A stretch of DNA of 64,000 nt, taken from assembly GCA_964187785.1 (NCBI GenBank), contig OZ076421.1:23870001-23934000 (forward strand), in the 5' to 3' direction. The notes below the pieces were generated by a model, which did not search any database, was not told the DNA's origin, and saw only the letters and a list, made by a program, of their open reading frames with translations. Position numbers and translations under genes: made by a program. Of the stretch, positions 9,751 to 39,300 are shown piece by piece (position 1 is the stretch's first letter; every line of letters begins with the position of its first letter). This DNA comes from Amphiscolops sp. MND2022 (lineage: Eukaryota).

Positions 9751-10648
9751 GTTTTTAAAAGGGGCCTGCAAATGACCGCAAACTTGTCGAAAAAGCAAAA
9801 TTTTCCAAATTTTGACGTTTTTGGCGACTTCGCGTAAAATTATAAAATAATTAACTGGTTAGGTTTTGGTGGTGTACACCCAAGCCGACAAAAAACATAG
9901 GTTTTTGGTGTGTTCATGAAATGTTTCCTTCTAAATAGGATGACATTATTCAAAAAGTGTCATTATCAAAAGTGTTATTATCTATGCGTTTTCATGGTGC
10001 AATGACTACTCTTGAGTCTCAAAAATGTCATTGCCAGAACAGTTTGTACGGAAAATATCCTGCTGGTCAGCGGGCGTCTTGTATTATAAGCGAATAAAAA
10101 ATACGAGTTTTTTAATCGCTACGACAGTTTGCGAATTTCAGCATTTTCGGAATTTGTCGAATGGAAACCTCTTTTCCATAACTGGAAACAAAAACATTTT
10201 TTGAATGAAAATTCGAATTTTTTTGGAAAATGTCGCATAGTGCCGAAAACACCAAGGTGCTCTCTATGCTCGTAAAACGTTCTGTTTCTGGTAAAAGTCG
10301 AAGGGGCTTCGATAAAAACAAATTGGAAAACAGTCGCACAGTGCCGAAAAACAACGGTTTTAAAAAAATTCGTATATAGCGTGCTGGTTCACTGAAAACC
10401 AAATTTTACAACAAAAAATAATCATTTTGTAAAATCTCTCAATGCCGAAAATTGTAAAGGCAGGACCCTTTGGGCTTTTTGAAAATCCAGTTTGTTGCAA
10501 AATTGTCTTCTTAAGAGACATTTAAAAATTTTCGAAAAAAAAAAACATTTTAAAAGTGCCGAAAAAAGACGGGACCTAATTTGGGGTTTATTAACATCCA
10601 TTCTATTGCAAAATGAGAATTTTGAAGTCTCATAGTGCCGAAAAATGT

Positions 10649-10898
10649 TGTTGAATGTCATTTGAACTAAATTGAATCTAAAAAAAAACTTGTTCATGCA
10701 TCTCAGAGTTGCTAAGTCTCAAATAATTTGTTCTGAACTATTCTGCCGCCGTTTTAATGTTTGTTCACAAGTTGGTCTGAATTAATCTTTGAAACACGTT
10801 CTAGTTGAAGTTTGACTTCCACCCAAGCTTTGAGCTATCTAGCTATAGCACAATTTAACAATTTAGCAGAGCTGTCTCGCCACAGCATACTACAAACA
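10649..10898 (+). repeat. BEL 5' LTR
   Basis: Matches 16855-17104 except CAGAG/CAAAG and CTTCC/CTTTC. Confidence 0.97.
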
Positions 10899-10900
10899 TT

Positions 10901-10910
10901 TGGTGACCCG
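10901..10910 (+). promoter_or_regulatory. Primer binding site (tRNA-Trp-like)
   Basis: TGGTGACCCG lies 2 nt after the LTR and resembles the complement of tRNA-Trp 3' ends (TGGTGACCCCG). The tRNA identity is inferred. Confidence 0.7.
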
Positions 10911-10960
10911 AAAGGACATTTTTCATCGAAACTGGTTAGATCGTTTCTTTTTTTTCCTTC

Positions 10961-11551
10961 ATGGTACGAAAAAACATCTACCTGGACAACCATTCTGAAA
11001 ACCTTATCTTGTCAGATTCGTTATTGAAAGAATTTAAAACTCAATCATTTAACATTTTATCAGTACCTGGCGCACGACCGGAGGATTTCTACTCGTTTTT
11101 ACCTCCGTTTTCGAGATTTACTCGCATTGTACTTTTTGTTGGAGGTAACACTTTAGAGGATTTTACTACCAAAGGTGGTCTTTTCCGCCCTCGAAAAGAT
11201 CCCATTGTTGTTGCACTTGAAATAGTTGACTTAGCCTACACCCTCTCGCTACGATCAGACAGTGTTTTTGTTGTAGGCATTCCCCCACGTGGTTATAGTT
11301 GTTTACAATCGAAAGTATCTTCATTGAATCGATATTTATCGCACTTTTTAGCAAATACAAGTATTACTTTTGTTGGTATTTCTCATTACCTTTATGATTT
11401 GAGTTACATTTCTGACGATTTGTGTCATTTTCTCCCCAGAGCGTTTGCGAAAATCCATAAACTCTTGAACAGAAAAGTTTTAAAAGAAAAGTTTCACCCA
11501 TCGAAAGCAAAGAAAGGCAAGATTATTAAATCTTGCAGCTATCCCTTTTAA
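10961..11551 (+). CDS. SGNH/GDSL hydrolase-fold protein (196 aa) encoded inside the BEL element
   Basis: Intact ATG-TAA ORF with block I LILSDS (Ser20), block II VPGA (Gly37), block III VLFVGGN (Asn63), VFVVGIPPR, and block V DDLCH (Asp153-x-x-His156). Confidence 0.8.
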   Translation: MVRKNIYLDNHSENLILSDSLLKEFKTQSFNILSVPGARPEDFYSFLPPFSRFTRIVLFVGGNTLEDFTTKGGLFRPRKDPIVVALEIVDLAYTLSLRSDSVFVVGIPPRGYSCLQSKVSSLNRYLSHFLANTSITFVGISHYLYDLSYISDDLCHFLPRAFAKIHKLLNRKVLKEKFHPSKAKKGKIIKSCSYPF

Positions 11552-11703
11552 AGTTAGTTTCTTATTCGCCTACGCCTGCCTGCCTGAAAGGGGCTGTGCA
11601 GCAATCTTTTGCGGTAACCTGCCTGAAAGGGGCTGTGTTGCTGTTTTTATTTGCCTGCCTGAAAGGGGCTGAGCAATTTCAACAAATACTCGAATAGTGA
11701 GAC

Positions 11704-14700
11704 ATGACAGACATCGAGAGTGTTGAAAAACTAAAACGAGCTAAAGCCTCGCGAAAGGCTCATGTTGCTATAATTACTCGCAAACAAGCCACTTTTGAGC
11801 AAATTGTTGGCAAAACAACACTGAACTAACAGACGAGGATCGAAACACAGCTGAAACTCTTCTAGCGTCCCTCTCCGATAAAAACAAAGTTGTTGATAGC
11901 CTTAATCTTGAAATCCTCGATTTAACTGAAAATACTGATGAACAAATGGAAGCTGAAATTGTTCACCAAGACGAAATAGACATGAAATTGAAAAGTCTCA
12001 TACGTAAAATTGAATCGTGGTTGAGTGCCAATTTTACAGTACAAGAGAGTCCTCCTGAAGACTCGCTGTCGTCAGTCTCCTCTCATCGTGAGAAGAATAT
12101 ACGTCTTCGCCGGATAGAATTGCCAACTTTCGATGGTGCCTACAAGGATTGGGTACCATTCTATGACATGTTCAAGGGCACCGTTGACAATCATGCATCA
12201 CTACCTGCAGTGCAAAAGCTATATTACTTGAAAGGAGCCTTACGTGGAGAGGCCAAGAACTTACTAGCACATCTTCCCACAACCGACGCTAACTATTCAG
12301 TGGCATTGGATCTCCTCCAAGGACGTTACGAGAATCAGTCTATGATAACTAAAGCTCATTTGACCAATATATTTAAAATTGGAGCTGTCAAACCTGATCA
12401 CCCTGAAAGCCTTAGAAAACTGCTAAATTCGTTTACCGAGAACGAGATGGCGCTGAAGGCTCTTGGCCTCGGCTCGACAGAATGTGATTTTCTGTGGATT
12501 CATATTTTATCGGAAAAATTGGATACAGTGTCAGCGCGTGAATGGCAATTGAGTAACAAAGATGGTAAAGTAAAGACTTTACAGGAATTTCGCCAATTTC
12601 TTGATCAACGTGCAACCGCCCTCGAAGCGGTTCAGAAGCTGCAATCTACAAGCGTTTCCCCGAAAGAAAGACCAAAAGAGACCAGCAACGGACAGAGTTA
12701 TGCAACTACTTCAAAAGAATGTCCTGTTTGCAAGCAATCTCATCGCATCTACCTTTGTCCTAAGTTCACTTCCTCTGAGGTCTCTGTCCGGCGTGAAACA
12801 GCCAAAGAATCGCGCCTTTGCTTCAATTGCCTCCGCCACGGTCACGCAATCCGGAATTGTTCATCGAAAACAGTCTGCCGCACATGTGGTCAGAAACATC
12901 ACACACTATTACATGACTCGAGTTTGAAAATACCTCGTCGCAGTGATACTTCAGAGTTTGGTCATCAGAAAGACACCACCAAGCACACCCCATGCACCAT
13001 GCTTTCGACAGCTATGGTATCCATTAAAGATAGTTTCGGCAAGCTTGTTTCATGTCGCGCCTTACTCGATAGTGGCTCGCAGATGAGTTTCATAACACAT
13101 ACAATGGTAGAGAAGTTGAAGTTAAACAAAGAGAGAACCCAATTGAGTCTCAGTGGAGTTGGTGGCATAACCACAAATAAATATACATCCCGTACAACAC
13201 TCGACCTTGCCACGGATCAGGGGACCATCGAGGTCAAAGCCTATGTCCTGAAAACAATAACAGGTTGCATTCCTAGTAGACCATTGGATATTTCGAGATT
13301 ACCCTCATTGAAGCAATACTACTTGGCTGATCCGAATTTCAATACTTCTGCTTCTGTCGATCTCTTACTTGGTGCTGACATCTTCGAAAAATTGATAATG
13401 AATCAACGGGAGGAGATAACCCCGGGTCTTTTCCTGCGCAAAACTCTTTTCGGCTGGGTCTTTGTTGGCCAACAAGAGTCGCAGACATCGACGGTGGTCG
13501 TGAATTGTCATTTGTCGTTAGAAGAATCTGTCAGAAAATTCTGGGAGATTGAAAACTTTCCATCGCAAACGTTTCAAACCAAAGAAGAAATCGAATGTGA
13601 GGTTCATTTCCAAGAAACTACTAGAATTGAAAATGATCGTTTTGTTGTAAAATTACCCTTCAAAAAGCATTCTTCTCTTGGTGAAAGCCTGCCTCAAGCC
13701 AAGCGACGCTTCGAATCACTTGAGCGGCGTTTAGACCAAAATCCTGAATTGAAAGAAAGGTACACAAGTTTCATTGATGAATTTCTTTGTCTTAAACATA
13801 TGGAAGAAGTACCGGAAAATGAAATTGTGAAATCATCATCAGAAGTATATTATCTACCGCATCACTGTGTACTCAAGGAAAGTTCAAAAACGACCAAACT
13901 TCGCGTTGTCTTCGACGGTTCAGCAAAAACCAGCAATGGATGCTCGTTAAACGACAACCTGCTGGTTGGTCCTGTTGTTCAAGATAATTTAATAGCCATC
14001 TTGACACGCTTTCGGTTCAATGTTGTTGCATTATCAGCAGACATAGCTAAAATGTATCGACAAGTAGTTCTAGATAATCCGGAGAAGGACTTCCATAGAA
14101 TTCTCTGGCGTGAAAGTAAAGATGGACCACTTCGCCACTTGCGAATGAAACGCGTGACATACGGAATAGCCTCTTCGGCTTTTCATTCTACCCGATGTTT
14201 AAAAGAGATAGCGAACCGCACAGAAAACTCAATTGTTAGAGATTGTTTGAATAGATGCTTCTACGTCGACGATTTTCTTGGCGGAGCTCCAACAATGATG
14301 AAGCGAAATCTTTGTTAGACAATCTTGTTAAAGAACTTCGACGTTATGGCTTCGATTTGAGAAAATGGGCGTCAAGTCATACTGAACTAATCTCTGAGCT
14401 GCCTGTCGAAATGAGAGAAAATGCTGACTCACTGGAACTGTTTTCGGAATAATACAGAATCAAAGCTCTGGGTATTTCCTGGCATCCCAATACGGATATG
14501 TTTTTTTTCAATTTAGATCTGGAGGAAATCACGGAACCAACAAAACGAGCTCTTTTGTCAGACTCGTCAAAAATATTCGATCCTATGGGTTGGGTATCGC
14601 CTGTAATCATTCTTTTCAAAAGTCTTGTTCAGCGCACATGGGTGCAAGATTTGTCACGGGATGACAAACTTCCTGATGACCTGGTTGAGCAGTGGTACAG

Positions 14701-16798
14701 AATACGTAAGGAACTGGAGTATCTTAACACGATAAAAATTCCTCGTTGCGTTCGGCCTCCAAAAACAACCGCACTTGAGCTCCATGTCTTCTGTGATGCC
14801 TCAGAGATGGCTTATGCGGCAGTGGTCTACATAAGAGCTCGGGGTCCAACAGGTATTTCTTGTAAACTTTTGACTTCTAAGACTAAGGTTGCCCCTGTGA
14901 AAGCTCTGTCCATGCCTCGTCTTGAGTTGTGCGCTGCGACTCTGGGAGCCAATCTTACAAATTCTCTCCGTCAAACACTTGAAGTGTCTTTAGTAACTGC
15001 TTGGACCGACCCTACAATCGTTCTTAATTGGCTTTCCAAGCTTCCCCGCACTTGGAATACGTTTGTTGCAAACAGAGTTGCAACTGTGCAGGAAGAAATT
15101 CCACGCAATCAGTGGAAGTACGTTCCAAGCAAGGATAATCCTGCTGACATGGCTTCACGTGGATTATTAGCCTCCGAGATCATAGAAAATGCGCTTTGGT
15201 GGAATGGACCGGAGTGGTTGTCAGCTGATGACGCTGAATGGCCTCTGACGCCCTCGACTGAAGAGACACTTCTAGAGAAACGATTGAATAAAAGCATATG
15301 CACCGTTGTTACACATATTCTGCCGTTGAATATTGAAAAATTCTCTTCTTTGCAGAAATTATTTCGAGTTTTCAGCTACGTTCTAAGGTTCATTGCGGAA
15401 GTGAAAGGGCGTTGCGGTTTTAAAATTCAATCTTCCGCACAAGTATCAGACAGCTTAACTGCTATTGAACTTGGAGAACCCTCTTATCGATTAGTGTCTT
15501 ATGAACAACAAAAGCTATTGAAGGAGGAATTTTCGTTACTTCAGCAGGGAGGCGAGTTTCCCAAAAACAGTCCCTACATCAGCCTATGTCCCTTCTTTGA
15601 CAAAGACTTCAATGTGATTCGAGTAGGTGGTCGCCTAGCGAACTCTGATTACGACTCTTTGAAAAAATTTCCGCTTCTCTTACCGAAAACCTCCTCTCTG
15701 GTTCCGCTAATCATTAGATATTTTCATGAAGCAACGCTTCATGGCGGTGATAGTATGACTCTTGCGGCTCTCCGAGAAACATATTGGATCATAGGAGTCA
15801 GAATAATGATCAGAAAAATCATCAAAAATTGTATCAAATGCTGTCGTTTTTCCCTGAAGTCAGCAACGCAACAGATGGCCGATCTGCCACTTGAGCGGAT
15901 AGCACCATCCCGACCATTTTCGCAAAGTGGGTTAGATTTCGCAGGACCTTTGAAAGTGAAATGTTCCGGAAAAGTTTATATCGCTATTTTTGTTTGTTTG
16001 TCAACTAAAGCCTTGCATATGGAACTTGTCGGTAACTTATCAAAGGACGCTTGTATTCTTGCCTTGAAGCGTTTCTTTGCCCGAAGACGCACACCGTCAA
16101 AAATTCTCAGTGATAATGGGACTAACTTCATTGGGGCAAGGAATGATCTCAAGTTGAATGAAGTATTTGAATCAATAAACAAAGATTCTGTTGTTTCCTT
16201 CGCTGAACAACGCGGAACGGAATGGGTAACAATTCCACCAAGAGCTCCTCATTTTGGCGGTATATGGGAAGCAGCAGTGAAAAGTATGAAACATCATCTT
16301 CGTCGTGTGGTCGGTACACAAATTCTCCACTATGAAGAGCTTTCTACTATCTTATGTCAAATCGAAGCAGTCTTGAACTCCAGACCCCTAGTCCCGCTTT
16401 CTAGTGACCCAAATGACTTGCAAGTGATTACACCGAATCATTTTTTAATTGGGGGATCGCCAAACGAACCCGATAGGCAAGAATCAAAAATTCCACTCAA
16501 CTGCCGCTACAGACTTCTCCAGCAGATCCAAAAGGACTTCTGGAAAATGTGGAAGAAAGATTATCTGGGCTCACTTCAGATGATGAAAAAATGGGCACAG
16601 AGTTCCGCAAATCTCAAAATTGGAGACCTAGTTCTACTGGCAGACGATGATTGTCGTGCAATGCAATGGAAAATTGGTCGAATTAAAGAAGTATATACCG
16701 GAAATGATGGACTTGTACGAGTTGTTAAAGTGAAAACTCAGCAATGTGATTTAATCCGGCCAATAGTAAAACTTCGAAAACTCCCAATCTCTTGTTGA
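11704..16798 (+). pseudogene. BEL gag-pol polyprotein, disrupted
   Basis: ATG at 11704, frameshift at ~11815. Motifs: DUF1759-like LRRIELPTFDG, three Cys/His knuckles, protease LLDSGS, RT YVDD, RNase H LHVFCDAS, integrase GLDFAGP/SDNGTNF/GGIWEAAVK. A second frameshift at ~14295 and an in-frame TAA at 14450-14452. Confidence 0.95.
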
Positions 16799-16854
16799 CT
16801 TTAACGCGCCCTCACTTACAATTTTCTTAATCATACTGATCAAGGGGTGCGGTA

Positions 16855-17104
16855 TGTTGAATGTCATTTGAACTAAATTGAATCTAAAAAAAAACTTGTT
16901 CATGCATCTCAAAGTTGCTAAGTCTCAAATAATTTGTTCTGAACTATTCTGCCGCCGTTTTAATGTTTGTTCACAAGTTGGTCTGAATTAATCTTTGAAA
17001 CACGTTCTAGTTGAAGTTTGACTTTCACCCAAGCTTTGAGCTATCTAGCTATAGCACAATTTAACAATTTAGCAGAGCTGTCTCGCCACAGCATACTACA
17101 AACA
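16855..17104 (+). repeat. BEL 3' LTR
   Basis: Direct repeat of 10649-10898. Confidence 0.97.
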
Positions 17105-17820
17105 ATGTAAAAGGGGGGCCATTTGGGATTTATTAACATCCATTCCGTTGCAAAATATCAAAAATTGAAGGGGGACCAGAAAAGTCTCATAGTGCTGAAA
17201 AAATCTAAGTTAAAAACACCAAGATAGCCAAAGGATCCTCAGTATCTTTTCAACGTTATGAACGTCGGTTCTGTTTTGGACGAGGTTCTGACATTTCCAG
17301 TATGTTTTGGACATGCGTATTTCAAGTTGAACAAATGAACAAAGAGGCCTTCCGCGGAATAAAAATCTACCCACTGTAAGAGTCGGGCACTTTTCTTCAG
17401 AAGCGCCGACTAAAAACGACAGGAAATTTTGAAGTCTTGACTTTTAAGTCCGACAATTTTTCGAAAACCCTTACTATAGCCAGCTGGGAGTGGTCCATGT
17501 TGGCTCCCCGCTTAAGCCTCAGAAAGCGCAGTCTCCTACTTAATCCCTGGACGATTTTTGAGAAAATTTTGAAAAGTACCGAAATAAAGCCAAATGGGGA
17601 TCCTTTGCTGAAATTTTAAAATTTTGTGAAAATCGCTTAGTGCCAAACAAATTTAATTGAGTCTGAATCCAAAGGCTAAAAATTTGATTCACTGTCCTTT
17701 TGGCGTCGGAAATTGTAACCAAATGCATTGTATCCGAATATTTACATCAGAACGAGGTGAGAATAGTTAAGCTTGAAATTATTTAAATTTCACCATTAGA
17801 TAGATTCGAATCCTCGCGGT

Positions 17821-17878: not shown

Positions 17879-18274
17879 CTTTGATTTTTTCTTCGGTTTG
17901 AACATTCAAAGAATTATTGAAACTTCGGTCAAAGCACGAGACACTCCCTCCAGCTTCTGCGACGTTTTTGAGTATGAATTTAAAAAATGGCAAACGCATG
18001 AGCGATTTTTGTCCGCTCTAATCCCATATAATTGAAATTTGAGCAGAAATGAAAATTCATATAAAAACTTGGCGTCTCGAATATTTTTTGAACATGACAA
18101 AGGAGGTAATTCACCTCTTTGAATTCTAAAACCTGAAATACATGCCTTTAGATTTGGTAATTTACTTTATTGGTGGAATTCAGCATCTATAGTTAACAAA
18201 TTCTAATCAATCTGAGATCAAGTTTGAATTCATTATCAGTGCAACTTGAACTGAATTCGATCATTTCAGTTATA

Positions 18275-20499
18275 ATGTCTGCTTCTGGCGACAAAGCGAA
18301 CGGATTACAGTTGGACACGTCAAACTCGGAGTCAGTTGCAAAACATTACAACAAACTACAAGAAATCGGTCTTCAAAAACGTACCGAGACCAGCATTTAC
18401 TACTTGAGGAACTTCAACAACTGGGTCAAATCGTGTCTGATTTCCACAACTGTCGATGCCATAAAAGCAGAAAGGGAGCAAAAATCAAGAGAACCAGAAG
18501 CGGAGCTTGAAAAATCTAGCAAACTTCAAAATGAAAATGGTAGCTCAGAACCTTCGCCGAAAGCAGCAAAAACATCTGAGATCTCATCTCTAGGTTCTCA
18601 AAGAAACGATCCCGGAAGCTTGGGTTCTTTCCAAAGAAACGATCAAGACGATGGGTACAGTCACCCAAGTTTAGAAGATGGCCCTCCTCGTAGCAATGAC
18701 TCTGGATCTAGAAAACGCAACAGTTTTCACATGACGGAACAGAAGGATCGGTTTGTGTCGAAACGAGAAAGGCTCGGAGATTTCAGAGTGCTGGACTTAT
18801 GCTGTGGAAAAGGAGGCGACCTGCTGAAGTGGTCAAAGTGTGAAATTCCAGTGACATCATTGGTTGGAGTTGACATTGCTGACGTTTCAATCAAACAGTG
18901 TAGGGATAGATTCTGGGATATGAAGAAGAAAAAGAACAAGTTAGTTGATGATAAAATATCAGTTCACGTACTCTGATATCCCGAATAGCCGGGGACACTA
19001 AGTGTTGATTTTGCTCTGGTTAGAAATGAATGAGTTATTGCGAATAGCTTCAGGAGCAGAGCGTTAAACTGATCGAATTTCACGCTCAATTTCATAGAAA
19101 ACTAGTTCTGTTGAATGGACTGGCTGATTGTGCTTCATTAATAGTTCTGAATAAAAGTACTGGATTGCGGCAGTAGCTTTCCTTTGTTTTCGAATTTTAA
19201 TTTGTGTGTTTTGAATTTTAAACGGATTCCATTTGCAGAAATCGGTAATGCGAGTTATTTCCGATCCCACAAACTTATGTTTATGCAAAAATTGTAGGTA
19301 GTCAATAAAGCCAATCAATCGAAATTAGATCCTTCAAAAGTCGTAAGTCTTTTGAATAAAAATTATTGTACTACAATAATTTTTATTCAAAAGACTTACG
19401 ACTTTTGAAGGATCTAATTTCGATTGATTGGCTTTATTGACTACCTACAATTTTTGCATAAACATAAGTTTGTGGGATCGGAAATAACTCGCATTACCGA
19501 TTTCTGCAAATGGAATCCGTTTAAAATTCAAAACTTCAAAAATTCAAAATTCATAGTATGAATGGTTCCATAAGTCAATAGCGCCAAATGTGGTGTTTCT
19601 TGAAGTTTTCAAGTCTGTTATTGTGACTGTAATGTAGTTTTACATGTTTTAGAGCGCACAACACATCGTTCTATGGACAATTTCACACTTTGGATTGCAC
19701 CAAAAACTTGATTCGTCCTCTTCTGCAAAAAGACTTTCGAGGTTTCCCTCAAGGAAACCAACCATGGTTCGATTTAGTCAGTTGTCAGTTCTCCATTCAT
19801 TACAGCTTCGAATCTTTGCAACAAGCTGAAACAATGGTGCAGAATGCATGTGAAATGGTCAATGTGGGCGGTTATTTCATAGGGACTACTTTGAATTCTG
19901 AAGAAATCTTGCGCAGATTGCGAAGAAGCCAACTCAAAGACCCTTCGACCAAATCTTTCGGGAATCAGTTTTATGGAATTGCTTTTGAAACGGTTCCTGA
20001 AAATTTTCTCTTTGAAGCTTTTGGGTCCAAATACAATTTCCAACTTGAAGGAGTAGTCGATTGTCCCGAGTTTTTATGTGATTTGGGCGTTCTCAAAAGT
20101 TTAGTGGCAAAATATGGCTTTGAATTGCAAGACAGTTTCGATTTTAAAGAAGCATTTGAGAGGTATAACGGTAAGTTTCGAGGGTTGCTAGAGATCATTA
20201 ACGCGTTGGAACCATTCTCCCCGGATCATCCCAGAAAAGACACGTTAGATTATGAGCATGCCGAAAGCTTCCTCAACAGATCAAATGTCGGAACACTTTC
20301 TCAAAGTGAATGGGAAGCTATCTCAGTATATCATTGTTTCGTTTTCAAACGAGTCTCAGAAGAAGCAGTGGAAAGTAATTTTGTTTATGACCCTGAGAAA
20401 ATCCTTAAATCTGTTGAGGAATCCTTGGAGGACCGAAGAATTCTGCAACCCCCGCTAATTGATAACTATCGGCCCAGGAAGTTGGTGTACAAAAAGTGA
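18275..20499 (+). CDS. RNMT: mRNA cap guanine-N7 methyltransferase; join(18275..18939,19653..20499), 503 aa
   Basis: Motifs HYN, RNFNNWVKS, VLDLCCGKGGDLLKW, GVDIADVSI, FDLVSCQFSIHYSFES, GGYFIGTT, VDCPEFL and LSQSEWEAISVY. The intron GTTAGT...TTTTAG is phase-compatible. Confidence 0.95.
19208..19534. repeat. Perfect 327-bp palindrome (163-bp arms, 1-nt centre at 19371) in the RNMT intron
   Basis: 19208-19370 is the exact reverse complement of 19372-19534 when read base by base. Confidence 0.97.
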
Positions 20500-20902
20500 C
20501 CAGACTGTCTTCCAAAATATCCAAAAAATTTGACCAGTCATTGTTCTTTTGGTAACTTTTGCATGTTGTAATGCAAATAACAACTTCCCAGAGATCGCAT
20601 TTGATGGTGTAATATGCTATCGAAACTAAAATTTAAGGAATAATCGTGCAGTTGTTTTAGTTTTGTTTTTGATGCTTCGATGAATATGATTTTTTGAGTC
20701 TTCTTTCATTAGAAATTTAATATGGAAATCCAATTTCTACATTGAATGATCAGTCTAATGACACTGTTTTCATTTGTGATATATAATGATATTGCTCCAG
20801 AAGCTTCATCACAAAGTTGTGTTTTCTTCAGAAACAATAAAAAGGGGTCTTTGGTGTTTCAATGTTCAACTCATTTCAGTGAGAACATGAGGTGACTTGA
20901 AA

Positions 20903-23900
20903 ATGTCCGGGGACGATTTGACTAATCCGGGTATAACCCATGTCATTTTCGACATGGACGGTCTACTTCTAGACACTGAGAGGCTATACACCGAAGCCAC
21001 GCAGCAGTTATGCGACAGGTTCGGCAAGGTGTACACCTTCGACATGAAGCGTCAAGTCATGGGCAAAACCGGCGCTTCTGCGGCTCAGGCTGTCATTGAT
21101 CTGGTCGGAATTCCCATGACTCCCGAGGAGTATATCAAAGAAATTAACCAAGTAAGAACCTTTGCTCGCCATTGCTCAAATGTCCAACCCGTCACTGTTT
21201 AGCTAATCCAAAGACATTTCGGTCATTTTCAGCAAAGGTATCAAAAATTTTATAGAGATTTTTGTTTAAAGCGATCTTTCGTTGTCTTCCTTGATTCGAT
21301 CAATTGGAAACAGTTTTTACATCCAATTTCTCCTAAAGCTACTACGTGTATATACTTTGACCTGACCAAATATTCAAAAGATACTCCAGTCCAGTAGTCA
21401 TAACTTGTAACTTATATCAGCGATGTCTTGTTTCACTTAAAGATCACGCCAGGTCTATTCCGAGGAAGTCAATGCTTGCCAGGTGCCGAAAAATTAGTGC
21501 GCCATTTACACTCTAACAATGTTCCAATGGCTGTATGCACTGGGTCCAATCAGACGAACCTGGCCCTGAAGACTACACTGCACAAAGACATGTTCTCTCT
21601 ATTCAATCACGTGGTCACAAGTTCAGATGACCCCGAGGTCAAGTTTGGCAAGCCTCATCCACAACCTTTTCAAGTCACACAGTCAAGGTCAGCATTCCTT
21701 AGTCTGTTGGTTGAATACATTATACCAACCATATGTTGAAAACCATTTTGGTCTCAGAAAATATACTGCATTGCGTTAAATGTATTAAAAGTTCTGAAAA
21801 TTTGCTCAAGATCTGCTGAGAATTTGAGACTACCAAAAAATTAATCATGTGGAAAGGTTAAAAATTACTTTTGCTTCAAAAACTAACTGTCCAAACTCTT
21901 TCACCATTTCAACACTATATCGTGATATTGATTGTCCGACGAAAAATGGTGAATAAATTTAACTTTCCTTTTTCTTCGAGAAATATTTATCGTTCTTAAG
22001 TCTTTTGTGTTGTCTAGCACGAGGGGGTATTAAAACGTGGAGAATGAAATTTCTTTTTTTTGAAGTTTTAACATTTTTGCGGAAATGGAAAGTTATAGAA
22101 ACCGTATATGTACTTTTATAATACCTACTTATCGATCCACTTTGTTTGCCAATTTGATTGGCTACTTCAAGTGTTTAGCTAGTTTATTGAATTCTCGTTC
22201 GATGAAGCGAACGAGTGTTAATTATTCAGTGTTAGCCAGGTTCGAACTCTCAATTTTTGCCTACAAACCTCGCGCTCTGACCACAACACCGTCCTGTAAA
22301 AATCCTGGCCTGAACCAAACGCTGATTTTTTTTTATTTTTCTCCACACCATTGACATACCTTCGTTTTAGGAATGTACTTCCTCGCCTTGCTCCTTTCGT
22401 CCGCCGGGTTGCATTTCTTCAGGTGATTTTTCATGGTTCCTTGTGACCTGAAGTTGCATTGACAGTTCGGGCATTCGAAGGATTTGGTCGAGTTGGCATG
22501 TATTCGTTTCATGTGTAATTTTAGGCCACTATTTGATTTGCAAACTTTTCCACAGTCTGGGGGGCATTCTAGACTAGGTACTTCGAAATTTAAAGTTTTC
22601 CTTCCACCGTTTCCGATATCCGATGATTGTGCGCTTGCTGCCTTTCCCAGTTTTTCAAATGGGCTTTCCTCTTTCTCAATATTTCTTTCCACTTTTTACG
22701 GCCTTGGGCTATGGTTCCCACCTCTGACCGGTTGACGCCTGCTTCTTTACGGAGCTTTTTCAGTAAAACAGGGTTTTCCCTTTTTCCCAGGCCGTTTCTG
22801 TAGTTCGTCAAGGCCACCTAACCATCCTAAGACCGCTATTTTCGTTGTTCTTTTGTTGCTCAGTGTGACATATTGAATGTCATAGTTTAAATGTTCATTA
22901 ACTTTCCTATTGCCATAATGTAATTTTCTATTCGAATGAACTTCGAATATTTCTTAAGCATATTGTTCTCATATTTTGTTGTTTATAACTTCTATCACCT
23001 ATGTTTTGAGCTCTGCTCCAAACCACCGAGTGGCCAATCTAATACAATATTGATGAGCTCTCAGTTTTCATATCCATATCAGAAAGAAAAAATTCGCTGG
23101 TCAATTAGATGTCCTTGAGTCTCATTCTTGGAAAATGTCCGATTCGTTCCGGTGTTCTTTATTTTCCAACTGATTGATTTAAAGTTAAGGATATTTCTGA
23201 TGTCTTGCATTTTTAGTCGGCGCCTTTTCCCTTAAGGAAAAAAGCCCGACTCTTACAGTGAGTAGTTTTTTTTTCAGTTGACAATCTCACTCTGAGTGGT
23301 CCACTTTTCTTGCAATTTGTTCATCTTCCATCTTCGACCAAGCCGGAGAGCGTGGGTTCGATTCTCGCACTAAACCATAAATTTTTTAATGCTTCCAAAA
23401 GTACAGGTGAGACCAAAGGGTTTCCCCCCTTTGGGTTTTTTTCGGCACTATGCGACTTTTTTCGAAAGTTTTCGAATTTTATCAAAGGGTACCCTCTTGC
23501 ATTTTTTTTGAAGTTTTCGGTTTGTAGAAAACGTTGAATGAGCCTAAATGACCTCTTTTTAGGTTTTTCGGCATTGTGCGACTTTTTTACCAAATACTTT
23601 TTTTGGAAAAAATATTTTTTTTCCAAATATTTCCAATAGTTGTTCCTTGAATATTTTTGAGCCTAAGATATGGCGCCGACTTGGGACGTTCCCGTCTTGT
23701 TATACCTTGTATTTCCATTTGAATGAGAGGAGGACCCGTTTTATTGCTCCAGATATGGCGGCACCTCTTATCGATCCAAGATGGAACCATTTTGACCTCC
23801 TTCGTGTACCATGGCCTAGCCGCGCAGTCAAACAGGAGCCCACTTTCAACACATGTTTCCACCACCTGGGCTTGTTTCTTCATTCAGCAATTGTATTTTG

Positions 23901-33364: not shown

Positions 33365-36300
33365 ATGACCCTTGTGGTTGAATGTGGTTGCAAAGGTATC
33401 CGACAATGTCCCAGCTGCACTGTGAAGAATGACAAAAATGAACTTGATGGAGTTGAAGAATCTTTCTGGGCAGAGAAGAGTTTCACTGTGGATGACGTAA
33501 GTTTTATTTAATGCCCTAAAATGTCAAAAAGACTCGGGCAAAAGGCTCTTTCACAGTGTACTGTGTAAATGATATGCGATGTAGGAAGAATTACACTTAT
33601 AATTGCAATTACAAGACGCCCGCTAAGCACCGGGATATTTTCCGTCCTGTTCGCCTTCACCAACTGAGCCATAGCTATTTTGGTAGGGGGGAATAGGATC
33701 TAAAGAATTAGATCTAAAATTTAGTGATTTTAGATCTTATTCCTTTTAGATCTTATTCCCGCCCTGAAATTTTAGATCTTATTCCTTTTAGATCTTATTC
33801 CCTTTTTAGGAGTCGGAAAAAATTTTCGACTACTTATGCAATCGTGGTTTTTTTTTGTTTTTTTATCTCCCGACCTTTTCATGAAAATTTCAAATTTCTC
33901 AAAAACTGTCCATACGATTTTCACGAAATTTTGCACAGTCATTCTACACCCAAAGAGCCCCTGCGTGTGCAAAGGCATCAAAATCGTATGGCTGGGATGT
34001 GAGAAACATAGCCAAAATTAGCCCAAAAATTGCCAAAAAACAGCCATTTTTCGACTTTTTTTCGCTTTTCTCAAAAACTGTCCATACTATTCGAACGAAA
34101 TTTTCTACAGTTATTCTACACCATATTAGAGTCCTATATGTGCAATGGCATCAAAATCGTATGGCTGGGATGTGAGAAACATAGCCAAAATTAGCCCAAA
34201 AATGGCCAAAAAACAGTCATTTTTCGTTTTTTTTTAAGATAAGGCTGTCATGTTAATAACAATGTGTTTATAACACGACTTTTTTAAACATGTTATTTAC
34301 ACCCTTTTTTTGACATGTTTTTAACAGATAACAGCGATTTCAGCGTTTTTCAGATTTTGAGATGCCTCGAGAGAAGAAACCAGTGTGGTCCTACTTCAAA
34401 GAAATTTTGTCGGGAACTAACAAGCGTGCAAAATGCAAAAACTGTGGGCTGGAAATTGTCAATAATGCAGCAAGGATGGAAAAACACATTGCAAAAGATT
34501 GTAAGGGTGCGACAGAATCTGAAAATGATAATGCGGGACCTTCGGCTCCGAAAACATTAAGACAAACGACGTTGCACATGGCATCGTCAAAGTCAAAGCA
34601 GCACGATATTGATCTACAAATAACAAGATATTTTATTGCAACGAATACACCATTCAATGCTGCATCTAATGATCATCTAAAACGTCTTGTGGAGAAACTG
34701 AGGCCCAATACAATTATTCCGGATCGTCGTGATATTGCTGGACGTTTATTGGATGAAGTGTACGATGAGGAAAAAGACAAAGTGAAGCTTCTGGTCTCTG
34801 AAGCCAATTGCACTTTATCATTAGACGGATGGTCGACATTATCCAATGAGCCAGTTGTGGGAGTTTGCTTCTACGCGAATGGATCTTGTTACTTTGTGAA
34901 TACAATCGGAACACTTGGTGAAATGCACACAGCTGACTATCTTGTGACTGTCATATCTGAGCAGATCAAGTACTTGCAAGAAGAATTTGGTGTCCGAGTT
35001 ACAAGTATCGTAACTGACAACGCAAGGGGAGAAAATGAATCCGAGTGAAGTAAGTGAGGCCGTATCGTATATCAAGGATTCCTGCGAAAGTGATGTTCTT
35101 CCCGCTTTGACGAAATACATGGGAAAAATTCCGCCATATTCGCCACATTGATTTGGCTCCAGTTTCAAGAATGTCTCATCTGACTCGTGGTGGAAAGGTG
35201 GTCTTCGCATGGGTTTTGACCCCATCTTGGTTGACGTGGCTTGCTCAATTGTTGAGGCTGTTTCATCATCTGCTGGATTGGAGAGATATTTTCGACGATG
35301 GGCCTCACGTACGGACGATTGAGAGGTTCTCTCGGGGTTGAGAAAGCAGGCAAACTGTCATTTCTGTTCCGGCAGTTGAACCGCTGATTTTAACACATTT
35401 TTTAACTATTTTACATGTGAAAATTCGTAATTTACATGTTAAATTGTAAAAATCGTTTTTAACAGTAAAATATGACAGCCCTGTTTTTAGATTTTCTCAA
35501 AAACTCTCCATACGATTCGAACGAAATTTTCTAGTCATTCTACACCATATTATGGTCCTTTATGTGCAATTTCATTAAATTCGTATGGCTGGGATGTGAG
35601 AAACATAGCCAAATTTAGCCCAAAAATGGCCAAAAAAAACAGTCATTTTTCAATTTTATCGATTTTCTCACAAACTGTCCATACTATTCGAACGAAATTT
35701 TCTACAGTTATTCTACACCATATTAGAGTCCTATATGTGCAATGGCATCAAAATCGTATGGCTGGGATGTGAGAAACATAGCCAAAATTAGCCCAAAAAT
35801 GGCCAAAAAACAGTCATTTTTCGTTTTTTTTTAAGATAAGGCTGTCATGTTAATAACAATGTGTTTATAACACGACTTTTTTAAACATGTTATTTACACC
35901 CTTTTTTTTGACATGTTTTTAACAGATAACAGCGATTTCAGCGTTTTTCAGATTTTGAGATGCCTCGAGAGAAGAAACCAGTGTGGTCCTACTTCAAAGA
36001 AATTTTGTCGGGAACTAACAAGCGTGCAAAATGCAAAAACTGTGGGCTGGAAATTGTCAATAATGCAGCAAGGATGGAAAAACACATTGCAAAAGATTGT
36101 AAGGGTGCGACAGAATCTGAAAATGATAATGCGGGACCTTCGGCTCCGAAAACATTAAGACAAACGACGTTGCACATGGCATCGTCAAAGTCAAAGCAGC
36201 ACGATATTGATCTACAAATAACAAGATATTTTATTGCAACGAATACACCATTCAATGCTGCATCTAATGATCATCTAAAACGTCTTGTGGAGAAACTGAG

Positions 36301-39300
36301 GCCCAATACAATTATTCCGGATCGTCGTGATATTGCTGGACGTTTATTGGATGAAGTGTACGATGAGGAAAAAGACAAAGTGAAGCTTCTGGTCTCTGAA
36401 GCCAATTGCACTTTATCATTAGACGGATGGTCGACATTATCCAATGAGCCAGTTGTGGGAGTTTGCTTCTACGCGAATGGATCTTGTTACTTTGTGAATA
36501 CAATCGGAACACTTGGTGAAATGCACACAGCTGACTATCTTGTGACTGTCATATCTGAGCAGATCAAGTACTTGCAAGAAGAATTTGGTGTCCGAGTTAC
36601 AAGTATCGTAACTGACAACGCAAGGGGAGAAAATGAATCCGAGTGAAGTAAGTGAGGCCGTATCGTATATCAAGGATTCCTGCGAAAGTGATGTTCTTCC
36701 CGCTTTGACGAAATACATGGGAAAAATTCCGCCATATTCGCCACATTGATTTGGCTCCAGTTTCAAGAATGTCTCATCTGACTCGTGGTGGAAAGGTGGT
36801 CTTCGCATGGGTTTTGACCCCATCTTGGTTGACGTGGCTTGCTCAATTGTTGAGGCTGTTTCATCATCTGCTGGATTGGAGAGATATTTTCGACGATGGG
36901 CCTCACGTACGGACGATTGAGAGGTTCTCTCGGGGTTGAGAAAGCAGGCAAACTGTCATTTCTGTTCCGGCAGTTGAACCGCTGATTTTAACACATTTTT
37001 TAACTATTTTACATGTGAAAATTCGTAATTTACATGTTAAATTGTAAAAATCGTTTTTAACAGTAAAATATGACAGCCCTGTTTTTAGATTTTCTCAAAA
37101 ACTCTCCATACGATTCGAACGAAATTTTCTAGTCATTCTACACCATATTATGGTCCTTTATGTGCAATTTCATTAAATTCGTATGGCTGGGATGTGAGAA
37201 ACATAGCCAAATTTAGCCCAAAAATGGCCAAAAAAAAACAGTCATTTTTCAATTTTATCGATTTTCTCACAAACTGTTCATACGATTCGAACGAAAGCGA
37301 GTCAGAAGGAAAAAGACTTAAGCCGACTCCTTTACCGCATATGCAGCTCTGGTTTGACTTTAGATATTATTCCCGATGTATGCTCATTTAGTTACTTGAC
37401 TATTTTCGTTACTAGTAGCTATATAATGTATGCTCATTTAGTTACTTGACTATTTTCGTTACTAGTAGCTATATAAAATGTGGGGTCGGAAAATAAAAAG
37501 AACTGTACGGGATACGATTAAACAAAAGTACATGAGTGTGGTAAGTGCGACGCATACACGTAATGTAACTTAAGACCAGTAATTTCAAATACCCTGTATC
37601 GAAGTCAAAAACTTATTAGATGTTTGGGATTTTGAGAAAGGGAGAAAACGATGCTTTTTGTTTCCATTTCATATGAAGGCAGAAATTCAAACTTTTTGCT
37701 CTTTGCTTTCGCTAGAAGATGCAATTTATTTAGCTGAATGATTTTTCACATGCACCGTCGCAGTCAGTCCTACATACTTTTTAAGATACGTAGTATTCAT
37801 CTATGTTCTATTAATATACATAATTGCTTTTGAAGTCATCGGTGTTCATATACCCTTCGAGTTCAATCTTGCAACCTGGAGTTCAGCTCAATAGACTGTA
37901 AAATAATTAATTATATGAGCTATATAATTATATGCACTCGATATATGCAGTCAAGTACTGTTCATTTAATTACGTACTAAGCATAACCAGGGATTTTAAA
38001 ATTAAAACCAGGTACAATTAAATTTCAATGAATACTACTTTATTGGAATTTTTAAATATGAAAACACAATTATTGCAATAAATACAATAAACATGTTAAC
38101 AATAAAAACGTAAATGCAAAAACACTGTAATCACAAAACAAAACCACAGGGGTTTTTAGTCGGCGTTTTCGAAGAAAATCCCGACTCTTACAGTGGCTAG
38201 TTTTTTTTTCGTCAGTTCAACGCGTAACGTCCACTTTTTGTGCATTAATGCACATTTACCAACTTTTACCATATGTACTTAGTACTTCATTTTCAACGCA
38301 TCCAAAGCCTCTAACATGAGATAAAAAGCCATTCCAAAGCAGAAGGGTCCACTTTTTTCAACACTAAGAGACTTTCCTCCTTTTTTCGGCACTGTGTGAC
38401 TGATTTTTTTCCGAAATTTTTTCATTGTTCCTCCCATCAATTTTTGATATTTTGCAACAGAATGGATGTTCAAAAAAATCCCAAAGCGTCCCCCCTTTTA
38501 CATTTTTCGGCACTATGCGACTTACCGGAAACTTCAAAAAAATTCCGAAAAAAATTTGGAATTTTTTTCTCAATTTTTAGTTTTTTGAGAGGTTTTGTTG
38601 TCTCCAATTGTAGAAAAAGTGGTTTTCGTCTTTTTGAGCCTTATATATGGCGCCGACTTGGGCCGTTCCCGGCTTGTTTCATTTAAATGAGTTTTCGGAC
38701 GTCTGCTGCTGTGCATACTTCTCTGTTAGACCGAAGAAACATGGCACTTTCAATGTTAATTGGTAAGAGTCTTTTTCTTTTCTCAGTGAAAACATAGCTT
38801 GTCTGGCTGAAAAAGCTTTCGGTCAAATTTGATGTAGAAATAACTGCGGTTGGTCAATACAAATATTGTGTATTTTTCTCTTTTCAGCACACAATAATTG
38901 CAATTTTAAAACAGACGTCCACGACAGGGGTGCCTAAAAATTAATGGCCCTCCATTTTCGAGAAAAAAACAATGCAATCCAGTAATGGTAAATTATCAAA
39001 TTTTCCCTCCTTATTTCCATTAATGGCAATCAATTTCGCAATTTAAAAGTCATTTAAAGCCTGAGAAACAAATTCTCATCCCAAAATTTTTCGTTGACCT
39101 TTAAGAATAACTGCATCTCTAAGTTCATTGGCAAAAGTTTTTGTCGCAAATCTGAGAAGGAATAAGTTGCAGAACTAAAAAACCGTTCCAGAATATTCGA
39201 AGTAGGCAGTAAAAATTTGACTCTCGTACTCTGACACTTTCTGAGACGATAATTGAAGTCTTCGTTTTTTTTATCAGCAAACTGGCAAAATCACTATCAG

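Follow-up and report, generated by a model that had tools for sequence, protein, structure and literature searches.

A stand-alone SGNH hydrolase gene between primer-binding site and gag in a BEL/Pao retrotransposon lineage of Amphiscolops, with relatives in Gypsy, Copia and LINE elements of the same genome

The window analyzed here is a 64,000-nucleotide stretch of contig OZ076421.1 of Amphiscolops sp. MND2022 (assembly GCA_964187785.1, positions 23,870,001 to 23,934,000 of the forward strand), and it contains a BEL/Pao retrotransposon on its forward strand. The 250-bp 5' long terminal repeat (LTR; window positions 10649-10898) and the 250-bp 3' LTR (16855-17104, preceded by a short purine-rich tract) begin with TG and end with CA; the insertion is judged to be young, since only 2 mismatches separate the two. 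The element is flanked by a 4-bp target-site duplication, ATGT, at 10645-10648 and 17105-17108. The norm for BEL/Pao elements is 5 bp, but an exact 4-bp duplication was likewise found in seven of nine sibling copies, with one further copy mismatched and one ambiguous. Downstream of the 5' LTR lie a primer-binding site that starts with TGGTGACCC (10901-10909, TGG from 10901) and a leader motif resembling a 5' splice site (10932-10940, GT at 10935), which is kept in all six families of the lineage described below. The primer-binding site of the sister families is presumably of the tRNA-Trp type. These features are followed by a stand-alone open reading frame (ORF) for an SGNH hydrolase of 196 amino acids (10961-11551), the ATG of which lies 62 nt past the 5' LTR, by a weak splice-donor-like site just past its stop codon (11550-11558, GT at 11553), and by three tandem predicted RNA hairpins (11575-11680) with an 18-nt core at 11579, 11618 and 11654. 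The gag-pol region (11704-16801, with its ATG at 11704) encodes Gag, protease, reverse transcriptase (RT), RNase H and integrase in the order PR-RT-RH-IN and matches the BEL set of Pfam domains (DUF1759 in Gag, Peptidase_A17, DUF5641 and rve). Together with the TG...CA LTRs, the primer-binding site and the target duplication, this identifies the element as BEL/Pao.

Elsewhere in the window, a host mRNA cap guanine-N7 methyltransferase gene with two coding blocks lies on the forward strand at 18197-20499, with a perfect 163-bp inverted repeat (19208-19534) between the coding blocks, and a host HAD-family hydrolase gene with at least two exons follows at 20891-21739, also on the forward strand. 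Tandem arrays occupy 33888-37296 and 268-2499 (units of ~1.6 kb with 172-bp subrepeats; units of ~405 bp).

The SGNH ORF was translated without a stop, as the first-pass annotation of this DNA had reported, and the damage that it had described in gag-pol of this copy was also found, namely, frameshifts near 11820 and 14290 and an in-frame stop at 14450. The contrast that it drew between an intact ORF and a broken gag-pol holds as an observation but is weak as an argument for function, because chance alone would often leave 0.6 kb unbroken when the neighboring 5.1 kb has three lesions. Over 10 copies, disablements per kb per copy amounted to 0.34 in the SGNH ORF and 0.57 in gag-pol. Around the SGNH ORF, the element shows neither a LINE ORF2 nor poly(A) nor the scar of an insertion. 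Programmed readthrough from the SGNH ORF into gag was rejected, since the gag ATG is out of frame and stops come directly. In one copy elsewhere in the genome (L057, 1498-7356), loss of the SGNH stop has left a single SGNH-Gag-Pol frame of 1953 amino acids; its siblings retain the stop. The idea of a chimeric integrase was also discarded, as it stemmed from an off-frame query.

Used alone, the 196-aa protein had no Pfam match at E ≤ 1, and as a single-sequence query it had no match in the PDB. Relatives were gathered, first 18 and then 166 at an E value of ≤0.001, and 37 of them, hand-picked as near full length, were aligned. Among these 37, 22 matched Lipase_GDSL_2 (PF13472) at E ≤ 0.1, the best at 1.5e-8; the nearest ESM Atlas clusters were GDSL-like (score of 0.93, 159 of 256 features in common), which we take as a lead only. 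When the family profile was compared with the PDB, the best match was PAF-acetylhydrolase (E = 3.7e-4) and the second was the esterase of the ZfL2-1 LINE (4c1b; E = 0.0013 over positions 15 to 151). Sequence blocks III and V aligned with the former and blocks I to V with the latter. Ser20 is invariant across the aligned relatives, and the only other columns kept in at least 90% of them are G37, G61, N63, P108, R110, D153 and H156. Under the block definitions given in the accessible text of PMC10792757, the Ser, Gly, Asn and Asp-x-x-His residues fall in blocks I, II, III and V, and the assignment made from the single sequence (Ser20, Gly37, Asn63 and Asp153-x-x-His156) was right in all four.

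The structural check that had been proposed along with that assignment, by AlphaFold and Foldseek, likewise returned an SGNH fold. An AlphaFold model built with the 37-sequence alignment reached a pLDDT of 92.8 and a pTM of 0.89, and Foldseek found 112 matches to it at E ≤ 0.001 (best, 6e-7; 4c1b, 3e-5); a model from a shallow alignment gave no Foldseek match at E ≤ 0.001. By VIA-align, the best matches were to SGNH esterases (Z = 17.7, rmsd of 2.5 over 164 residues), and SGNH/GDSL proteins dominated the top 50 rows, with the OSK domain of Oskar ranking 24th (Z = 13.6). The protein has a pI of 9.6 and a basic tail, and it has no transmembrane stretch. Judged from its sequence, the catalytic triad of this SGNH-fold hydrolase is intact, and esterase activity is predicted.

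To place the gene in its own family, a search of the same genome was used; it gave 151 matches, drawn from the 150 best of its 780 candidates, and the counts based on it are therefore lower bounds. In all 21 copies of the family that were found with the spacer and the start of gag, SGNH sequence lies directly upstream; 18 of these copies have the LTR, the leader and the whole ORF, and 3 are truncated. The ORF is thus not a one-off nested remnant, an outcome that the first-pass annotation had named as fatal to its own reading. Five more BEL families, at 55 to 61% protein identity, have the same layout of LTR, primer-binding site, SGNH ORF, spacer and gag. Over the 15 pairs among the six families, pN/pS was 0.18 to 0.44 for SGNH, 0.15 to 0.40 for gag and 0.10 to 0.25 for RT, with all bootstrap upper bounds for SGNH at ≤0.54 and synonymous sites near saturation. 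The SGNH ORF is constrained about like gag, as their ranges indicate, and the near-neutral ratio that would also have counted against the reading was not seen between families. Within the young family of the window element, 10 copies were compared; pN/pS was 0.46 for their SGNH ORF, close to the 0.47 of gag-pol, and no stop interrupts the ORF in 8 of the 10. The singleton variants in these young copies were near neutral (20 nonsynonymous and 8 synonymous); this is no proof of lost function, because such a pattern is expected after insertion and gag-pol behaves alike. It is the purifying selection between families, rather than the intactness of a single copy, that is evidence for a function of the ORF, as far as sequence comparison can reveal one, and we are nearly certain that the ORF is a real, selected SGNH gene.

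Sister loci were represented by 20 RT relatives, picked since the genome search listed no SGNH match adjoining them. The SGNH profile found no match within 9 kb in 19 of the 20 and a decayed copy in the remaining one, and gag begins 30 to 74 nt past the primer-binding site in 12 of the 20. Long open gag-pol frames occur among the 19 loci that lack the SGNH ORF, which is therefore dispensable for BEL mobility. In FastTree trees of gag and RNase H, the SGNH-bearing families make up one side of a branch (support of 100 and 99, respectively); they are not united in the integrase tree or in the RT tree, where support is low. Broken copies were excluded from these trees. The simplest reading would be a single gain of the SGNH ORF in the stem of the six-family lineage. 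Together, these results bear out the first suggestion as far as a BEL lineage with an accessory SGNH ORF is concerned: the ORF is fixed and selected, and its triad is intact. The role in membrane targeting or RNP assembly that the suggestion offered as an example is conjectural.

The ORF is not specific to BEL: in this genome, members of the same SGNH family are also carried by Gypsy and Copia elements and by LINEs. This wider pattern comes from a sample, not a census, in which about 20 weaker matches were examined out of several hundred, and element classes were assigned by Pfam domains and domain order. Within BEL, the ORF was found in three positions. In family L145, it lies between the primer-binding site and gag. 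In a distant BEL lineage (L061-L066 and L152, RT 33% identical), it lies inside 1.3-kb LTRs, for example at 336-1607 and 8259-9531 of L061, so that each element has two copies and a solo LTR would retain the gene; in L061 and L062, gag-pol is unbroken at 2226 amino acids. In L155 (955-1557), L156 and L068, the ORF comes just after integrase; two to three hairpins follow it and then, ahead of the 3' LTR, a 47-nt stretch whose ends are those of a canonical intron. Outside BEL, the ORF lies between the LTR and gag in Gypsy families L143/L154 and L146-L150 and in Copia L144/L153 (after the primer-binding site in L153), and upstream of ORF1 in LINE families L142 and L070/L151. The SGNH-bearing Gypsy elements are compact, with LTRs of ~135 to 150 bp, and L143 has no obvious TGG primer site. 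The L142 family (copies L096-L099, L102 and L119) is young, with copies ~99% identical, and is a three-ORF LINE consisting of the SGNH ORF, two hairpins, a PHD-finger ORF1 and an endonuclease-RT ORF2. A Maverick/Polinton-like cluster (A32-like ATPase and integrase) was seen beside a truncated SGNH-bearing BEL LTR in L157 (2209-6807, reverse complement); a link between the SGNH gene and Mavericks was rejected there, since the truncated BEL LTR merely adjoins another element.

The SGNH proteins are 31 to 52% identical across classes and 24 to 36% identical to those of the six-family BEL lineage. Of the 18 ORFs compared, 15 have the full set of five catalytic residues, and the net charge is +7 to +16 in every one of the 18. 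The proteins from outside the six-family BEL lineage end in a His/Cys cluster (H..C..CxC), possibly zinc binding; those of the six-family lineage end instead in a basic tail that closes with Y/S-P-F. The SGNH tree, made with FastTree only, ignores element class: the two LINE families stand apart, as do the two Gypsy families, and the proteins of LINE L142 and Gypsy L143, 51% identical, group at a support of 97. Cross-class pN/pS values were 0.41 to 0.61 with pS saturated, which indicates that the exchanges are old. We consider exchange of the SGNH gene between retroelement classes to be probable.

The hairpins behind the ORF were compared in the same elements. In the six-family BEL lineage, the spacer that separates the SGNH stop from gag contains two to three copies of the 18-nt hairpin core; their common structure is 89% paired over 12 units, a value reached by 1 of 500 shuffles, with only three pairs that change on both sides and an invariant core. 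A pattern search did not find these hairpins in the 19 SGNH-less sister loci. Taken as a whole, the spacer has a predicted fold no more stable than those of shuffled sequences (z = -0.91), and Rfam yielded nothing close to a gathering score in 10600-11800. One to three similarly shaped hairpins follow the SGNH stop in Gypsy, Copia, LINE L142 and the BEL elements with a 3' ORF. Nine such units, which were selected for inner-stem pairing, show both-side changes at 9 of the 12 pairs; since that selection makes the pairing of the inner helix circular, the informative part is the outer stem alone (65% paired, both-side changes at 4 of 6 pairs). A hairpin model made from the Gypsy, Copia and LINE units detected sibling copies strongly and gave nothing below an E value of 0.45 in 99 kb of sister loci. 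It did not detect the hairpins of the six-family BEL lineage at E ≤ 10, matched the L070 and L145 units, which had been kept out of the model, no better than by chance (E values of 2.7 to 7.2), and had no match in the LTR-borne BEL copies. The hairpins thus occupy a common position across classes, and a common origin is not established. As the array follows the ORF in L155, where no gag lies downstream, it is likelier to be tied to the SGNH cassette than to gag translation.

Donor-like sites are enriched within ~50 nt past the SGNH stop over 10 families (Fisher P = 3.9e-6 on the sense strand and 0.95 on the antisense strand), in a window chosen post hoc and with an approximate matrix; the site at 11553 is itself weak (P = 0.13), and the upstream leader motif (GT at 10935) has individually unremarkable scores. 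Three junction patterns, used with no positive control, found no intronless genomic copies. Splicing out of the SGNH ORF to make a gag-pol RNA was dropped, given the lack of such copies, the unremarkable donors and the lack of a consistent acceptor before gag.

As the best overall explanation, to which we assign a probability of about 0.5, the ORF would be a conserved accessory SGNH acylhydrolase gene that serves membrane targeting. The kept triad, the basic charge and the lack of both signal and transmembrane segments all point this way, as does the precedent of the ZfL2-1 esterase, which was shown to have hydrolytic activity and to bind acidic phospholipids and liposomes (PMC3905857, accessible text). 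The SGNH protein would be translated as the first ORF of the full-length RNA, with a short spliced RNA made through the donor past its stop as a possible second source. By analogy with the ZfL2-1 esterase, it would bind acidic phospholipids through its surface charge and hydrolyze an acyl ester, with the outcome of aiding ribonucleoprotein assembly or vesicle and germline trafficking. That this soluble, positively charged, predicted lipid-binding acylhydrolase takes the RNA or particle of the element to cell membranes is a step that we put at slightly less than even odds. The ORF and its 3' hairpins may move between retroelement classes as a cassette, probably by template switching between copackaged or colocalized RNAs, and the hairpins may serve as an RNA handle for the protein. 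Against the explanation stand the SDS sequence of block I in place of GDS, the lack of fusion to either Gag or a coiled coil, and the finding, in the accessible text of PMC3905857, that the ZfL2-1 esterase does not bind oligo-(A) RNA. The misses of the hairpin model, the RT and integrase trees, the sister loci that do without the ORF and the neutrality result for the rotifer ORFs (see below) also count against it. A still more tentative extension, possible but doubtful, is a portable two-part module, made up of the active SGNH enzyme and a cognate 3' hairpin array, that BEL, Gypsy, Copia and LINE elements would have exchanged; with it, the RNA of any retroelement could reach membranes, vesicles or the germline without Gag or ORF1p.

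The catalytic triad is also what would be expected of a counter-defense deacylase acting in trans, which would remove acetyl or palmitoyl modifications from lipids or from host proteins of silencing or restriction and so aid any retroelement, however it replicates. A stand-alone ORF common to elements with unrelated particles agrees with such a role, as do its three positions in BEL, including one inside LTRs from which solo LTRs could still express it. A public good of this kind would be open to loss, yet the gene was retained in 21 of 21 copies; the ZfL2-1 esterase is without histone deacetylase activity according to the accessible text of PMC3905857, and the hairpins are left unaccounted for. 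We regard this alternative as unlikely.

The hairpins would be explained if the protein were instead an RNA-binding adaptor, like OSK, that reads the tandem array and controls splicing, export, gag translation or germline localization of the full-length RNA. Its high pI and basic tail, the structural match to OSK, the arrays that trail the ORF across classes and the sense-strand enrichment of donor-like sites past the stop are consistent with this. However, OSK ranks below the catalytic enzymes, and it has Asp in place of the nucleophile according to the accessible text of PMC10792757, whereas Ser20 is invariant in the present family, so that a noncatalytic, Oskar-like reading is disfavored; the donor evidence itself comes from a post hoc window and an approximate matrix, with a weak site at 11553 and no spliced genomic copies found. 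An adaptor of this kind likewise seems unlikely to us. Finally, a passive remnant of a nested LINE or host gene, now without function, might be suspected from the LINEs of this genome that carry the same SGNH family (a LINE origin of the cassette is possible), from the failure of Pfam on this divergent copy and from the near-neutral young singletons, but these are expected after insertion and are matched by gag-pol, no LINE debris surrounds the ORF, and frame and triad have been kept across six families at near-saturated synonymous sites with pN/pS values like those of gag, so that by sequence comparison the absence of function is already refuted and we give this reading hardly any weight.

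The reason why retroelements have repeatedly captured SGNH esterases has been open since such esterases were discovered in LINE ORF1 proteins. That one genome has the same enzyme family under selection in each of the three LTR superfamilies as well as in LINEs, with close sister families that do without it, argues for a role independent of the mode of replication. If the hairpins are the handle of the protein, the pair would amount to a class-independent trafficking or regulatory module. The proteins are small and predicted to be soluble and well folded, and with their candidate RNA partners, they are directly assayable.

Among known systems, the closest in arrangement are the bdelloid rotifer Vesta LTR elements, which carry a GDSL ORF3 in common with the Penelope-like Athena/Terminon elements (PMC5408684, accessible text). 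As in Vesta and Athena, the ORF described here stands alone, has intact catalytic residues and no coiled-coil or transmembrane parts, and is common to unrelated retroelement types within one host. The accessible text of PMC5408684 argues for gene sharing between retroelement groups, a case repeated in that of PMC6431247, and reports for the rotifer ORFs no clear tie to copy number or departure from neutrality. In contrast, the present ORF is found in BEL, Gypsy, Copia and two LINE families, is under purifying selection between families and is trailed by 3' hairpin arrays; it lies 5' of gag, and elsewhere in the genome inside the LTR or at the 3' end (L155), unlike the 3' ORF3 of Vesta. The ZfL2-1 ORF1p esterase of the CR1/L2/RTEX LINEs (PDB 4c1b; PMC3905857, accessible text) shares the SGNH fold, the triad, the basic charge and the retroelement context. 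It is, however, a domain of ORF1p behind a dimerizing coiled coil, whereas here a separate protein of 196 amino acids is encoded in an LTR element ahead of an ordinary gag, and in the LINEs the SGNH ORF precedes a separate ORF1; a search for longer fused SGNH forms found none, which is weak evidence. Ngaro elements, which use a tyrosine recombinase, have an extra SGNH hydrolase ORF of unproven function after the recombinase (PMC9210276, accessible text), a likeness by description, and an SGNH gene is reportedly present in a Helitron (PMC4021074). Oskar OSK (PDB 5a4a) shares the fold and the basic character and is an earlier example of an SGNH domain that binds RNA, but it belongs to a host germline gene and is without the catalytic Ser, unlike the full triad found here. 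No BEL or Copia case was found in the literature outside subscription journals, supplements, Repbase and Dfam, and the accessible part of a survey of BEL clades (PMC8220671) makes no mention of a hydrolase. The novelty first suspected for BEL is upheld to that extent, but not for LTR retrotransposons in general, given the published ORF3 of rotifer Vesta (PMC5408684, accessible text). Precedents exist for SGNH ORFs in LTR elements and for their sharing among retroelement types; what appears to be new is their presence in BEL and Copia, their location at the 5' end or inside the LTR, their spread over four superfamilies of a single genome and the hairpins that trail them.
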